DNA from: Bacilli bacterium
GTDB lineage: Bacteria; Bacillota_I; Bacilli_A; RF39; UBA660
NCBI GenBank assembly: GCA_051872655.1
Contig: JBJEEB010000041.1
Location: forward strand, 2,656 to 66,655
DNA length: 64,000 nucleotides
Reading direction: 5' to 3'
Part shown: positions 52,023 to 64,000 of the stretch, piece by piece
Layout: each line of letters starts with the position of its first letter
Position numbering within the stretch: position 1 is the first letter of the stretch
Translations under genes and position numbers: made by a program
Notes under the pieces: model-generated
Seen by the model: the letters and a program-made list of their open reading frames with translations, nothing else
What the model was told of the DNA's origin: nothing
Databases searched by the model: none

Positions 52023-53114
52023 TTATAATTTGTTTGCCTCTCTAATAATTTTATTATTTTTTATCAATCTTTCATCATCGGGAGACATTTCTAAAGCTTG
52101 TTTTGAATAGAATAAGGATTCTTCTAATTTACCTTGATAAAATGTACTAATAGATAACAAATCATAAATTGTATAATCCCAACTAAAAGGTTCATTTATA
52201 TAGGTTTTTTCATGTTTTTCTATTTTTAAAGCTTCCTTAGCATATTTTTCTACTGCTTCATAATTGCCTAATTTATATTCCAATAAAGCTCTTTCTACAT
52301 AAGGATCTCTTAAATATGGTGTTTCATTTATAGCTTTATCAAGCCACATTCTTGCCTCATCATATCTTTTTAAATTTACATATGATCTAGCTATAAAACG
52401 CATTGAAGCACTTCGTTCATCTTTCCAAGTAGCTGATGGTAAATTTAAATGCCTAATTAAAGTATCAATACATTCATTCCATTTTCCATAATACATATAT
52501 TCTCTACCCAAATAATGCATATTTCTATCATCATCAGGAGATTCCTTTACTGATAATTCAAGCAGTGGTAAATAATTACTTCGTGATTTTTTACTATCTG
52601 GATAATGATTTACTGTTATACTATCAGTAGTAATAAATTTTTCTATTCCATTTCCAGTATATTTTAATACCTCATGAACAGGATGTGTCCATTTATAATT
52701 ATTTCTAGTATGAATTTTTTCAATATAAAAATTTACAATAGGATTATTTTTATCATCTAAACTCCAATTATAATTATATCTAAGCCTATCAGTATCTTTC
52801 TTCCAAACCATTTCTAATTTTTTACGCCATCCTTCTTCTAAAACTTCATCCAAATCTATACAAACACAAATATCTACATCTTTTGGAACCATATCTAGAG
52901 ATAAATTACGTGCCACATCAAATCGCCATGGTTTTATTTCTTTTTGAGATACAACTATTCCTCTCTTTTTTAATTCCTCTACAGTATTATCTGTTGATCC
53001 TGTATCTAAAACATATACTTCATCAGCTTCTTTAACAGAATTTACCCAGCGTTCTACAAACTTTTCTTCATTTTTACAAATTGCATAGACACACACTTTA
53101 TATTTATTCACCAA
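52023..53114 (-). CDS. Glycosyltransferase (GT-A, family 2-like) with C-terminal TPR repeats; SgtA-like exosporium glycoprotein glycosyltransferase
   Basis: N-terminal GT-A nucleotide-binding fold (KVCVYAICKNEEKFVERWVNS...VLDTGSTDNT). C-terminal TPR helices (YEAVEKYAKEALKI...). It starts 1 nt after the collagen-like gene's stop. Confidence 0.65.
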   Translation of the reverse strand: MVNKYKVCVYAICKNEEKFVERWVNSVKEADEVYVLDTGSTDNTVEELKKRGIVVSQKEIKPWRFDVARNLSLDMVPKDVDICVCIDLDEVLEEGWRKKLEMVWKKDTDRLRYNYNWSLDDKNNPIVNFYIEKIHTRNNYKWTHPVHEVLKYTGNGIEKFITTDSITVNHYPDSKKSRSNYLPLLELSVKESPDDDRNMHYLGREYMYYGKWNECIDTLIRHLNLPSATWKDERSASMRFIARSYVNLKRYDEARMWLDKAINETPYLRDPYVERALLEYKLGNYEAVEKYAKEALKIEKHEKTYINEPFSWDYTIYDLLSISTFYQGKLEESLFYSKQALEMSPDDERLIKNNKIIREANKL

Positions 53115-54536
53115 TTATGCTCCTTGTCTACCCTTATATTCAATCATAATTGTAACTAAAGAATTAGTAAAGTATGAACCTGAACTTATATTTTTTAATT
53201 CTGGTGTATTCAAATAAATATTAGTAGGTCCTATATTCACTAGTTCATAAGCATTTGCTATATTTTCAATTGATATTAAACCTTTACCTACTATTTGCTT
53301 TGCTTCTTCATAATAACTCCACTCACTTGCACCAATAAAAATATTATCTGTTCCAACTTGTCTAAAGCCAATTGATACAAAATCTTTGTCAGGATTAAAA
53401 TCTGTACTATCAGCAGAAGCATAGGCTGAAACAATAAATGTTATCATATAATAACCCTCAACATTAAACTGAATTACTTCATCTGATGTATCTAAAGTTA
53501 TAAGCCCTGAAATATCTAATTCTTTTCTATCAATAGGTAGTCTCTCATTAGAAGCCACACTTATTCCATCAGCACTAGTCCCATCATTAAATGTTACTAA
53601 ATAAACATCTCTATAAAGACTAGGACCTGCTGGACCTGTTGGTCCTGTTGGGCCTTGAATATTTCCAACATTTTTCCAAGACTGTGTATTATCAGACCAT
53701 ACATATAAATCACCATTAACTAAATAAGCATCATTAGCTGTACCTGTTGGATGATCTGCAATTAACTCATCATATGTACTATATGAACCCATTATAGAAA
53801 CGCTTGTTCCTGCTGGACCTGTTGGTCCTGTTGGTCCTTTAGGCAATGTAAAGTTTAATACTTCAGCATCCTCTTTTTCCTCTATTCTTACACTAGGATC
53901 ATCACCTACTACAACTACACCTACATCAAAATGACATTTTGGTCCCGTTGGGCCTGTTGGACCTGTTGCACCTCTAGGGCCTGTTGGTCCTGTTGCTCCT
54001 GTTGGTCCCGTTGCTCCTGTTGGACCAGTTGCTCCTGTTGGACCAGTTGCTCCTGTTGGTCCTGTTGCTCCTGTTGGTCCCGTTGCTCCTGTTGGTCCTG
54101 TTGGTCCCGTTGCACCATCTTCACCATCTTCGCCATCAAAACCTTTTGGTATTACAAAGTCTAAAACATGATTTGGTCCACCTGTAGTATCAGTTACCAT
54201 AGCATTCGTTCCAGCATCACCTGTAGTGGTAGTTCCAATTTCTATTGTATCTGCAGTACCATCTTCACCTGTTGGTCCTGTTGGTCCCGTTGCGCCTGTT
54301 GGTCCTGTTGCGCCCGTTGGACCTGTTGGTCCCGTTGCGCCTGTTGGTCCTGTTGCGCCCGTTGGGCCTGTTGCACCTGTTGGGCCTGTTGCACCTGTTG
54401 GGCCCGTTGCACCTGTTGGACCTGTTGGTCCCGTTGCGCCTGTTGGGCCTGTTAGTCCTATCAAACCTGCTGGACCAGTTGGGCCTGTTGCTCCATTGTT
54501 TAAATCTTCTTTATATATTAAATTTGAAAGTTCCAT
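53115..54536 (-). CDS. Collagen-like exosporium glycoprotein (BclA-like): three GXT collagen blocks plus a C-terminal globular domain
   Basis: (GPT/GAT)n triplet repeats over residues 17-91 and 144-198, and a short third block ~295-306. The C-terminal ~170-aa beta domain is plausibly C1q/TNF-like. The adjacent TPR-glycosyltransferase mirrors bclA3-sgtA of C. difficile. Confidence 0.7.
53942..54107. repeat. Collagen-triplet coding repeats, block 2
   Basis: Tandem cctgttgctcctgttggacc repeats. Confidence 0.8.
54263..54488. repeat. Collagen-triplet coding repeats, block 1: 9-nt ggncc(t/c)gttg-type periodicity
   Basis: Direct tandem repeats visible in the sequence (cctgttggtcccgttgcgcctgttgg...). 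Confidence 0.8.
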
Positions 54537-56587
54537 ATTATCTTAATATCCCTTGAATTTGTTTCTTCGTCATAATGACCGACTAATACCTTATCAATAA
54601 AGTCATTGACAATTTCAATATCAAGTTTATCTATATGTCTATACTTCTTAAAGATGTTCTTTTTAGTTTTTAATGTTTCTTTTTTTGCAGTAGCAGAAGC
54701 TATATCTTTTTTTATTATTTTCATTCTATCTTCTAGTTTAGCAGTATCATCTTTATATTTATTCATTAAAATTAAAAACTCTTTTTCTGGAAGTATCCCA
54801 GAAGTACGATCTTCATATAGTCTTTGAAAATAGGAACTTTTATTTTGTAATTCCTTATTAATATTATTTAGTTCTTTTTCTAAAGTTTTAATTTTATCCT
54901 TAAACAAATCTTGTTCTATCATATCTTCATTTAAGTTATTAAGCTCTTTTTCATCATAAAATCTGTTAAGTAAAACATTAATTTTTTCTAATACCAAATT
55001 ATGTAATTCTTCTTCTTTTAAATATTTCTTATTATCACAATTAGACCATTTTTCATTTTTATCTTTACAACACAAATAACTAAATCCTGATTCTTGTTTT
55101 TTACCACACTTACAGAAAACTCTATTACAATTCATACAAAATACTTTATTATTAAAAGCGTGTACTTCGCCATTTTGCTGGCTTCGTGATTTTTCTTTTA
55201 ATCTTTCTTGAACTGTGTACCAAATTGTCTTATCAATTATTCCTGTATGTGTATCATTTTTTCTTATTCTATCTTCATCATCATTATAAACTACTGTATG
55301 ATTTTTATAGCTTACCGTAGTCGTTTTAAATTGTACCATATTACCAATATAAACTTCGTTTTGTAATATACTTTTAATTGTTTGACTAGACCATTTTAGT
55401 TTTCTTCTAATATTAATTTTGAAATCCAAGTCAACATCAATATTATCAACGGCTTTTTTAATCATAAAGTAAAACTTTTCTTTATTGATGTTTTCTTTTA
55501 AAGTTATTTCAAATTGATAATCAATGACGTGTGTTCTATCAAGTTCTTCCGTTAATGTAGCAATACAAGTAGCATTTTTAGGTATTATATCTTCTTCATT
55601 TAATAAAATAAAATCTTCAACATTAAAATTATTAATATCTAAATTATCTTTTTCGCTATAATAAATTTTAGTTCTATTTTTTGAATATCTTTTTAAAGTA
55701 ATATCACACTTATTATTAAAACTCAATTTATCAGTAGTGATGTAATTAAAACTAATCAAATTATTAAGTATCTGTGTTTCATTATTACAAAGGTTAATAT
55801 TAATAATATATGTACCAGCTTTTTCTATATAGTCATAATCTAAATATTCTTTTATTAAAGGTATTTGCAATTTACTACCGTGCATTTTCTTATATTCAAG
55901 TGGACTAGGTACTTTTTCTTTATTTAAGTTATTAGCAATTTTTTCTAAACCGTCGCCTTTCATATAATCATCAAAAATTCTTTTTACAACTTCTGCAGCT
56001 ACTGGATCTGGTATTAAATGATTATTATTTTCTGGATCCTTAATGTATCCATATTTTGAAAAACTTGCCGTGCACTCGCCAGCTTTTCTTTTGGATTTAA
56101 AAGTTTCGCGAATATTAAGTGAAGTATCTTCTAAATACCACTCATCTGTTAATCCTAATATTTGACTTGTTTTTTTTGTCTCTCTTTTAGTATTATCAAT
56201 TCTATCAACTGTTGTAAGAAATCTTACATTCCATTCGTGAAATAAGTTATGTATATATTTTTCTATAAGTTCAGAATCTCTTGCAAATCTAGCTTGTGTT
56301 TTACATAAAACTATATCAACATTTCCAGCTTTGCACTCATCAATCATTTTATTAAAATTTGGACGCGAGTTATCAGCACCAGACCAATCTTCATCATTAT
56401 AAACACCAACAATTTGCCAGCCTTCATTTTCTGCATATTCCCTTAACATTAATTCTTGATTTTTAATACTTTTTGATATTTGTTCTTTTGTTAATTTATC
56501 ACGATCTTCATCTGATAATCTTAAATATAACACCACCCTTACTAATGTTTTAATAACACTATTTTTTATACTTTGTAATTTACTCAT
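54518..56587 (-). CDS. Large serine recombinase (resolvase catalytic domain + recombinase domain + zinc ribbon + coiled coil), 689 aa
   Basis: Catalytic Ser context [13 protein letters not shown], resolvase-fold conserved Arg/Asp (ARFARDSE), C-terminal Cys cluster ([13 protein letters not shown]) and a long coiled coil. It contains a ~170-aa insertion in the recombinase domain. The stop overlaps the bclA-like start by 19 nt. Confidence 0.85.
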
Positions 56588-63780: not shown

Positions 63781-63947
63781 TATTTACCATTCATTACACA
63801 ATCCAAGTTTTCAAATATATAATCTCTCAATAATCTATCTAAAACATTTTGAATTGTTAAACCTTTAATCTCTAATATTTTTCTAAATGCTTGTTCTGTT
63901 TTAGGATCAACTAAAACTTTTAAATATACAGATTTCTTTTCATTCAT
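63780..63947 (-). CDS. Small ribbon-helix-helix-like protein (55 aa), first gene of the mobilisation operon
   Basis: Own translation MNEKKSVYLKVLVDPKTEQAFRKILEIKGLTIQNVLDRLLRDYIFENLDCVMNGK. AAAGGGGG lies 8 nt upstream. Its stop overlaps the next start (TAATG). Confidence 0.35.
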   Translation of the reverse strand: MNEKKSVYLKVLVDPKTEQAFRKILEIKGLTIQNVLDRLLRDYIFENLDCVMNGK

Positions 63948-64000
63948 TCGCATAACCCCCTTTAAACATTATTTATTATCTTCGACTATATCATTATCAA

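Follow-up and report, generated by a model that had tools for sequence, protein, structure and literature searches.

The window analysed here is a 64,000-nt stretch of contig JBJEEB010000041.1 from a Bacilli bacterium (assembly GCA_051872655.1), and its subject is the junction, within positions 52023 to 64000, between a mobile element with a large serine recombinase (LSR) gene and a collagen-like gene. Coordinates are window positions unless preceded by a locus number; L005-L052 denote the homologous contigs and loci compared with the window. The gene string was called from the listing of open reading frames (ORFs) and from Pfam scans, and all features of an initial annotation, coordinates included, were recovered. 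Read along the minus strand, on which all of them lie, the genes encode an RHH_9 protein (63780-63953), a NikA-like/RHH accessory protein (63349-63780), a MobL relaxase (61929-63356), a type IV secretion system (T4SS) coupling protein with T4SS-DNA_transf, TraG-D_C and TrwB_AAD_bind matches (60077-61756), an orphan C5 cytosine DNA methyltransferase (58951-60087; DNA_methylase, E = 2e-56), three cargo ORFs of 69, 167 and 291 aa with function unassigned (58737-58946, 57932-58435 and 56924-57799), a 56-aa ORF 5′ of the recombinase gene (56648-56818), a 689-aa LSR with Resolvase, Recombinase, zinc-ribbon and DUF4368 domains (54518-56587), a collagen-repeat ORF as annotated (53115-54536; Pfam Collagen), and a glycosyltransferase with Glycos_transf_2 (GT2) and TPR domains (52023-53114). 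The accessory gene had been expected as MobC-like; the gene is present, but its Pfam family is NikA-like, not MobC. Copies that are 98-99% identical indicate that the element runs on past the window end (63954..64000).

The recombinase gene and the collagen ORF overlap by 19 nt (54518-54536). An in-frame TAA lies three codons 5′ of the collagen ATG, no Shine-Dalgarno-like GGAGG precedes that ATG, and the first Gly-X-Y triplet comes at residue 15; the overlap, the stop codon and the poor ribosome-binding site (RBS) had all been described beforehand and hold in the sequence. The same recombinase-to-collagen junction recurs in many independent assemblies and is therefore not an assembly accident. 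Scanning one genome per species with the recombinase turned up ten loci, in assemblies of gut 'Bacilli', 'Mollicutes' and Clostridium sp. CAG:914, and a metagenome scan gave a further ten. In BLAST comparisons with L007, L008, L010 and L011, similarity to the window begins about 330 bp 5′ of the recombinase gene and ends abruptly at window 54494-54448. Beyond the recombinase stop, ...ATATGGAACTTTCAAATTTAATATATAAAGAAGATTTAAACAAT is common to every element, after which the sequences part into different host genes; in 13 independent insertions, the shared sequence extends through the stop to ...GAAGATTTAAACAAT (window 54495). The recombinase-proximal terminal inverted-repeat arm, AAAGAAGATTTAAACAAT (54495..54512, minus strand), is identical in the window, L005-L012, L031-L033, L038 and L040, with host sequence diverging directly after it. 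This arm encodes residues 9-14 of the apparent collagen ORF, and the first 14 residues of that ORF are common to unrelated proteins, namely a beta-helix protein (L011), short collagens (L031 and L040) and a non-collagen protein (L010). Because the elements share this sequence and then diverge into different flanks, the 14 leading residues can be ascribed to element DNA and the annotated ORF to a junction product.

Junction alignment thus shows an element boundary inside the annotated collagen ORF, at 54487-54495, with the collagen ATG and first 14 codons belonging to an element terminus that forms a putative recombinase-binding arm. The junction core next to the arm reads GGAGCAAC on the minus strand (54487..54494), and the host-derived 3′ part of the gene occupies 53115..54486, or possibly starts at 54494 under another reading of the junction. 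The earlier suspicion that the collagen gene is not intact is borne out by this boundary. Metagenome ORFs that start with the same 14 residues are accordingly junction artefacts rather than native proteins.

Among the 13 different flanks collected, 12 are Gly-X-Y repeat sequence; the L011 flank is a beta-helix protein gene 5′ of pheS, and the L010 flank is a non-collagen gene beside mraY. As read from these flanks, the preferred target of the recombinase family is Gly-X-Thr repeat DNA, and collagen repeats have been struck repeatedly. The 8 nt after the arm in collagen insertions fall into lineage classes, with GGAGCAAC at six sites and GGACCAAC at three. L012, a 98% identical integrative conjugative element (ICE), has a flank different from that of the window (GGACCAACTGCTCATTATGG), indicating that the element moved recently. 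In L033 (1884-2040), two elements lie about 100 bp apart in one collagen gene, and L040 (1035-1487) carries the same gene with the first element only; collagen repeats can therefore take several elements in tandem. Most probably, then, the window junction is the right attachment site (attR) of an ICE that entered a host BclA-like gene close to its 5′ end, in DNA coding for Gly-X-Thr repeats. A separate set of family members (L048 300-400, P0001 and P0010) has MKLQLILLDDLFYRG ahead of the first triplet. The corresponding L048 DNA (..AGATGATTTATTTTATCGAG|GAACCGGCCC) resembles the element arm, and the upstream gene is not a recombinase; this leader probably marks the terminus of another, related element family that strikes the same genes.

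The interrupted gene encodes three collagen blocks (Pfam Collagen, E = 8e-24), two small intervening domains and a C-terminal C1q/TNF-like domain, and the host remainder has no promoter, RBS or N-terminal domain of its own. An AlphaFold model of residues 300-473, built from 31 sequences, reached a pLDDT of 91.5, and its top Foldseek matches in the PDB were F-BclA (9h38), BclA C-terminal domains (2r6q and 3tyj) and C1q heads, so that on this predicted structure the protein is BclA-like by its C-terminal fold. Several hundred relatives were found with the C-terminal 274 residues. Nearly all that are full-length have a Cys-rich N-terminus of 30-45 residues (e.g., MNNYEKALKKIKQDQKCRPxCCIGPTGP) followed directly by collagen triplets, and alignment with P0002 shows the window gene to be short of about 44 codons. 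No exosporium-targeting N-domain was found: the window ORF opens with the 14 element residues, and the Cys-rich N-domain of intact relatives has no assigned function.

Close relatives of this gene occur without any element. In L047, which is 59% identical over window residues 144-473 (79% in the best local segment), the collagen protein starts with MNNENNFYEGSILRNAMEEMKHHKKCCCQRFIPGPTGP..., and 3 nt past its gene lies that of a glycosyltransferase sharing 73% amino acid identity with the window's; L025 has a similar collagen-plus-glycosyltransferase pair with a native N-terminus. A homologous glycosyltransferase gene also follows the interrupted collagen genes of L013, L031 and L040. The initial annotation would have been contradicted by element-free relatives sharing the window's N-terminus; those of L047 and L025 are instead different and longer. 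The comparison thereby shows the collagen remainder and the glycosyltransferase, which lies outside the element, to be host genes.

These relatives also bear on the proposal, raised as an alternative in the initial annotation, that the collagen and glycosyltransferase genes are cargo of an element whose left end falls in the intergenic region 51885-52022. Gene adjacency and the overlapping frames are all that speaks for it. Where the recombinases are 89-96% identical, all similarity between element locus and window ceases directly after 54494, and the sequences run on into mraY (L010), pheS (L011) or other collagen genes, and the terminal arm is located at 54495-54512, with no arm-like sequence within 51885-52022. 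Since element-free relatives have the same gene pair and native N-termini, the cargo proposal is rejected and retains almost no credence.

A functional role for the fusion itself is very unlikely. On that explanation, the element's ATG and 14 codons would have been selected to keep the collagen protein expressed by coupling it to recombinase translation, and the element would remodel the gene. The frame from the ATG to the junction is indeed open and in phase in all window-type insertions, including the non-collagen one, and gene callers report these fusion ORFs. However, there is no RBS, and L013-type elements close the frame with a stop while those of the L034 type are out of phase, so that it is not a conserved feature of the family. 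Moreover, the recombinase C-terminus and its binding arm already constrain the full 42 nt, and the product would lack the Cys-rich N-domain found in essentially all intact family members.

Integration within the gene, the reading preferred here, places the missing 5′ half at the opposite end of the element, and related elements show such an arrangement. An inverted copy of the arm, ATTGTTTAAATCTTC, marks the far end in L010, L011, L013, L033, L034 and L046; a scan of viral contigs for the distal-arm pattern gave 0 matches. The elements so delimited measure 10.7 kb in L010, 5.3 kb in L011, 4.2 kb in L013 (recombinase 72% identical) and 5.1 kb in L034/36/37 (recombinase 65% identical). The same recombinase-plus-arms module thus bears different cargo in these 4.2-, 5.1-, 5.3- and 10.7-kb elements and in ICEs. 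In all five element types (L010, L011, L013, L034/36/37 and L046), the far end is bordered by the 5′ portion of the gene that the element interrupts, on the same strand. There are 36 native codons at the far end of L011 (MSYIIKRENMNCNKNKINAYTQNIPICLVPGPTGAT) and 216 native collagen-gene codons at that of L013, where the 3′ part and the homologous TPR-glycosyltransferase gene follow the recombinase; at that of L046, a good RBS is present and 44 native codons (MNYNCHHDNFPNNNDRPIIRPIFCIVNPTGPTGSTPSQGPTGPT) are joined to 15 codons of the element. Both gene halves were seen for L010, L011 and L013, and the 5′ half for L046. The 5′ fragment with a native N-terminus that the initial annotation predicted is thus present in the related L011, L013 and L046, while the far end of the window's own copy lies beyond the contigs. 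The cargo of the small relatives differs: L013 7976-9687 encodes, as read from the sequence alone, two NUDIX-like proteins and an aminoglycoside-phosphotransferase-like kinase, and L011 6883-9099 encodes a 738-aa protein with a weak HopA1-effector match.

With both ends in hand, a crossover register can be proposed. The dinucleotide AC occurs 6 nt from each arm in 12/12 proximal and 5/6 distal junctions, and the L034 subfamily has GT on both sides, from which the crossover dinucleotide in the window is inferred to be AC at 54488-54487, 6 nt from the inverted-repeat arm. Joined element ends would then read GAAGATTTAAACAAT-N6-AC-TG(A/C)ACG-ATTGTTTAAATCTTC. Joining the flanks in silico at the dinucleotide gives an open frame in all four cases (L010, L011, L013 and L034). 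The L010 join yields a 174-aa protein with an exact match on 351 contigs, and the alternative L010 protein with a duplicated ETT was not found in the look-up. Exact look-ups of the reconstructed L011 and L013 proteins returned nothing; homologous intact alleles of the L011 target gene exist. The empty L010 site (L049-L052) has the same neighbours and flanks 98.6-99.7% identical, and the occupied/empty pair L010 and L049 puts the exchange within a 9-10-bp stretch at the junction core position. The sequence (T)GAAACTACT is found once in the empty site and on both sides of the L010 element, and GGTCCAGTTG behaves likewise for L034. In both L010 and L034, the target also matches the six bases next to the proximal arm. 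The exchange may be an unusual one, after which 9-10 bp of target remain on either side of the element.

Three other crossover models were considered and set aside. Exchange at the TG abutting the proximal arm, where the common sequence ends, is at odds with the empty L010 site, which has one copy of GAAACTACT, not two. No single GA register suits both L010 and the collagen insertions, and the GA joins tried run into a stop in L013 and shift the frame in L011. Genuine duplication of a 9-bp target does not account for L011 and L013, where the two copies differ by 1 and 4 nt, respectively. The L010 target gene (P0361-P0390) itself exists in three alleles, of 174 aa (empty), 158 aa (occupied) and, as a common form, 180 aa. 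The last 35 residues of the 180-aa allele are completely different, hinting at an older rearrangement at the L010 site, and given this allele in the cluster, the L010 'empty' allele may have a separate history.

The element carrying this recombinase is, on its gene content, an ICE. L005 and L012 match the window from the recombinase through 64000 at 98.5-99.2% identity (BLAST), and past 64000 these near-identical copies encode a 55-aa transmembrane protein, an M23 peptidase and VirB4. Further on, in L041 (the remainder of contig DLOU01000061) and L042, there are genes for a VirB6/TrbL-like protein, a sortase, a SpaA/thioester adhesin, a single-stranded DNA-binding protein and helix-turn-helix regulators. 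The window supplies the MobL relaxase and coupling protein, and copies 97-99% identical (L005, L012, L041 and L042) supply VirB4 and the mating-pore genes, in keeping with the mobilizable or conjugative nature claimed in the initial annotation. Because L041 and L042 extend the module without arriving at its end, the ICE is put at about 27 kb or more. Gene order up to the recombinase is the same in related ICEs (maps L026-L030), among which L027-L030 keep the C5 methyltransferase in the same position. The integrase and proximal end are seen in the window itself, and a distal end is seen in the small relatives and in L046, an ICE collinear with the window element at 75-81% nucleotide identity. 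Look-ups with the Fur and RHH proteins returned only short contigs that end in collagen repeats or within the element, exact look-ups of the window relaxase and glycosyltransferase returned zero contigs, and nothing was returned when the DNA of 52023-64000 was compared at near-identity with collections of plasmids and phages. The cargo region (56924..58946) differs from relative to relative, and its ORFs have no family match in Pfam or PHROGs. The 98% identical ICE of L012 has about 700 bp extra (L012 7122-7829 versus window about 58709-58754), a cargo indel located between the 167-aa ORF and the methyltransferase region.

The recombinase has a catalytic domain (Pfam Resolvase at residues 18-171, 77.8 bits with the cut-off at 23.3, and a visible YLRLSDED motif), a Recombinase domain (82.2 bits), a Zn_ribbon_recom match slightly below its cut-off (24.7 versus 25.3 bits) and DUF4368 (PF14287) at residues 630-687 (34.5 bits, cut-off 25). 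It also matches the PHROG_95 integrase (E = 2e-88) and is 28% identical to annotated tndX across its full length (tblastn). By these matches it is placed in the DUF4368/TndX-like multi-targeting clade. LSRs of the DUF4368-rich clade are multi-targeting either through relaxed specificity or through a target sequence that is present at many sites (Durrant et al. 2022, PMC10083194), and the second description fits the window recombinase: recombinases at least 86% identical occur in C1q-type, beta-helix and short collagen genes and in the non-collagen 174-aa gene. A further locus, L014 297-716 on a 113-kb 'Clostridia' contig, has only residues 11-150 of an 89% identical recombinase and could represent a truncated or disrupted copy.

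Ahead of the recombinase start codon, GCGCGTTATAAT (56635..56646, minus strand), a sigma-A-type -10 box, is kept across window-, L027- and L034-type elements, the recombinases of which are 65-90% identical, in otherwise AT-rich DNA; it is a putative recombinase promoter. As to sigma factor, this upstream region can be read in more than one way. The 56-aa ORF adjoins the recombinase in most relatives, including the L013 and L034 types, and is absent from L011; it has no match in Pfam, NCBIfam or PHROGs and is a candidate accessory or directionality factor. In window-type elements, it is preceded by a CATA(A/G)ATTA box and inverted repeats. These repeats (AGAACTATGG ... GGACTATCATAGTTC followed by a T run, 56860-56925, minus strand) are kept in window-type elements only and may be an operator or a terminator.

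Taken together, these observations suggest the following course of events. The ICE would integrate, via its own LSR, into the Gly-X-Thr repeat DNA of the BclA-like gene, the promoter, RBS and Cys-rich N-domain of which (about 44 codons) would then lie at the far junction, at least 17 kb past 64000. As long as the element stays integrated, the gene would be inactive or would give, at best, an N-terminally replaced product; recombinase-mediated excision, which conjugative transfer needs, would rejoin it in frame. Repeat DNA would offer many equivalent landing sites, which would explain both the multiple targets and the tandem insertions. Several points weigh against this model. The window's own distal junction was not found, as the window and the best public contigs end inside the element. 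A 9-10-bp target stretch flanking both sides of an element is not predicted by the 2-bp exchange of serine recombinases, and the exact crossover is unsettled. The L013 junctions differ in the TG register, and that copy may be immobile. Finally, elements of the window-type subfamily bring an in-frame ATG of their own, which makes some expression of a truncated protein conceivable.

A developmental role may be added to this model rather than opposed to it: the element would be excised in the mother cell during sporulation, as skin is, possibly with the 56-aa ORF as directionality factor, so restoring the BclA-like gene just where it is required, while the forespore keeps the element. This extension is doubtful. 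Among five native 5′ ends of family genes, four (L046, L025, L013 and L047) have a CATAnnnTA box 28-31 nt before the start. In the window, such a box at -34 to -26 was found for 1/33 RBS-bearing genes, namely cotJB (box at -26), an enrichment with a Fisher p of about 3e-4 from those counts. The cotJB gene (Pfam E = 1.5e-25) overlaps a cotJC-like Mn-catalase gene (21783-22843, plus strand). The box and cotJB suggest mother-cell expression of the collagen gene family, and the target is, on this evidence and its BclA/C1q-type C-terminal fold, probably a mother-cell spore-surface gene. Also consistent with a switch are the layout known from skin and SPbeta (recombinase at the element end, co-oriented with the gene, in-frame rejoining), the 5′ and 3′ fragments that are open in all complete cases, and the small conserved ORF with its CATA(A/G)ATTA box 5′ of the recombinase. 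On the other hand, the recombinase clade is transposon-like and multi-targeting (PMC10083194), the L010 target is a signal-peptide protein and not a collagen gene, the 56-aa ORF is lacking in L011, and a perfect TATAAT (sigma-A-type -10) box is conserved before the recombinase gene. In-frame geometry and orientation are automatic for a sequence-specific site, a conjugative element must excise in vegetative cells too, and promoter-like boxes carry little weight at 24% G+C. The fullest version, in which the ICE and the small cassettes are reversible switches of collagen genes that use the repeats as a landing pad, are removed in the mother cell and employ the unusual 9-10-bp exchange, is unlikely.

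Known LSR-excised elements occupy a handful of sporulation genes at one fixed site each; here, the target is DNA that codes for a protein repeat, giving many equivalent sites per genome and allowing several elements to stack in one gene. The element family thereby links horizontal transfer directly to the spore-surface make-up of uncultured gut spore-formers, and its insertions amount to a natural collection of GG(A/T)(G/C)CAAC-type attachment sites that a compact multi-targeting recombinase uses. If excision were controlled by sporulation, a conjugative element would be acting as a developmental gene switch. Full-text searches recovered the known intervening elements (skin, SPbeta, gin and others); in the papers searched, no such element or ICE was reported in a collagen-like or bclA gene and no exosporium gene was named as a target, and PMC10083194 and the other papers searched gave no report of a target motif consisting of Gly-X-Thr collagen repeat coding sequence.

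Further observations were made in the window and at the compared loci. In the window, a 771-aa ORF (42682-44997, minus strand) joins arginine deiminase (ADI) to both ornithine carbamoyltransferase domains and is followed by a carbamate kinase gene (41754-42689), and a single ORF for a 999-aa protein (28424-31423, minus strand) unites a thioester domain and four SpaA-type domains with a sortase domain at the C-terminus. Beside mraY, a penicillin-binding protein (PBP) gene with PBP_dimer, Transpeptidase and PASTA domains is intact in L049 (637 aa, 7641-9554; cf. L010 13314-15239). In L050-L052 (7641-9942), it is split by a different, 553-aa LSR, the recombinase stop lying 10 nt from a 209-aa 3′ PBP fragment. 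If this PBP is a SpoVD paralogue, the split gene is another candidate for a sporulation-gene intervening element.

Sporulation-gene intervening elements with an LSR include skin (SpoIVCA) in sigK, SPbeta (SprA-SprB) in spsM, gin in gerE, vfbin and vrin (PMC4191935, PMC5595907 and PMC5025042). As in these elements, the LSR gene of the window element is at one end, the coding sequence that it interrupts is that of a probable mother-cell sporulation gene, and the frame would be restored by precise excision; like SPbeta, it is still a functional mobile element. In contrast to them, it is conjugative rather than a prophage or relic, its recombinase is DUF4368/TndX-like, and the recombinase module is found at 13 or more sites in several gene types, with repeat DNA as target, rather than at one unique site.

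Within the transposon-like recombinases, the closest parallels are Tn5397 (TndX) and Tn4451/Tn4453 (TnpX), conjugative and mobilizable transposons of clostridia. These likewise combine an LSR carrying a C-terminal DUF4368 with conjugative or mobilizable cargo, reside in Firmicutes and insert at more than one site. Sequence identity to these is low, the module here is of MobL/VirB4/sortase-adhesin composition and not Tn916-like, and the preference for collagen repeats is particular to the present family. Tn5397 and Tn4451/Tn4453 exchange at a GA dinucleotide at both ends, whereas the consistent register here is AC (GT in one subfamily). The recombinase agrees with the multi-targeting clade of Durrant et al. 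(PMC10083194) in having DUF4368 and in the occurrence of close recombinases in several gene clusters; the motifs described for that clade are AT-rich or of other kinds, and the motif here is Gly-X-Thr collagen repeat coding sequence.

The target gene resembles those for BclA of Bacillus anthracis/cereus and BclA3 of C. difficile in its N-domain (in intact relatives), collagen region, trimeric C1q/TNF-like C-domain and adjacent glycosyltransferase gene, an arrangement recalling the sgtA-bclA3 pairing (BclA3-SgtA) in Clostridioides difficile. It differs in that the Pfam BclA C-terminal model is not matched, the likeness being at the level of fold (12-19% identity), in the extra small domains between the collagen blocks of the window protein, in the GT2 type of its glycosyltransferase with TPR repeats, and in the N-terminal motif of the family, ..K(A/I)L(E/K)KIKxDQKC(K/R)PxCC(I/V)GPTGP, which is not the B. 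anthracis targeting motif. Lastly, SCCmec elements with their Ccr recombinases are also LSR elements flanked by direct repeats of the target core and can stack in tandem at one locus, as seen here in L033; however, SCC elements use one fixed site in rlmH (orfX) and the paired CcrA/CcrB, whereas the elements described here enter many genes with repeat DNA by means of a single recombinase.

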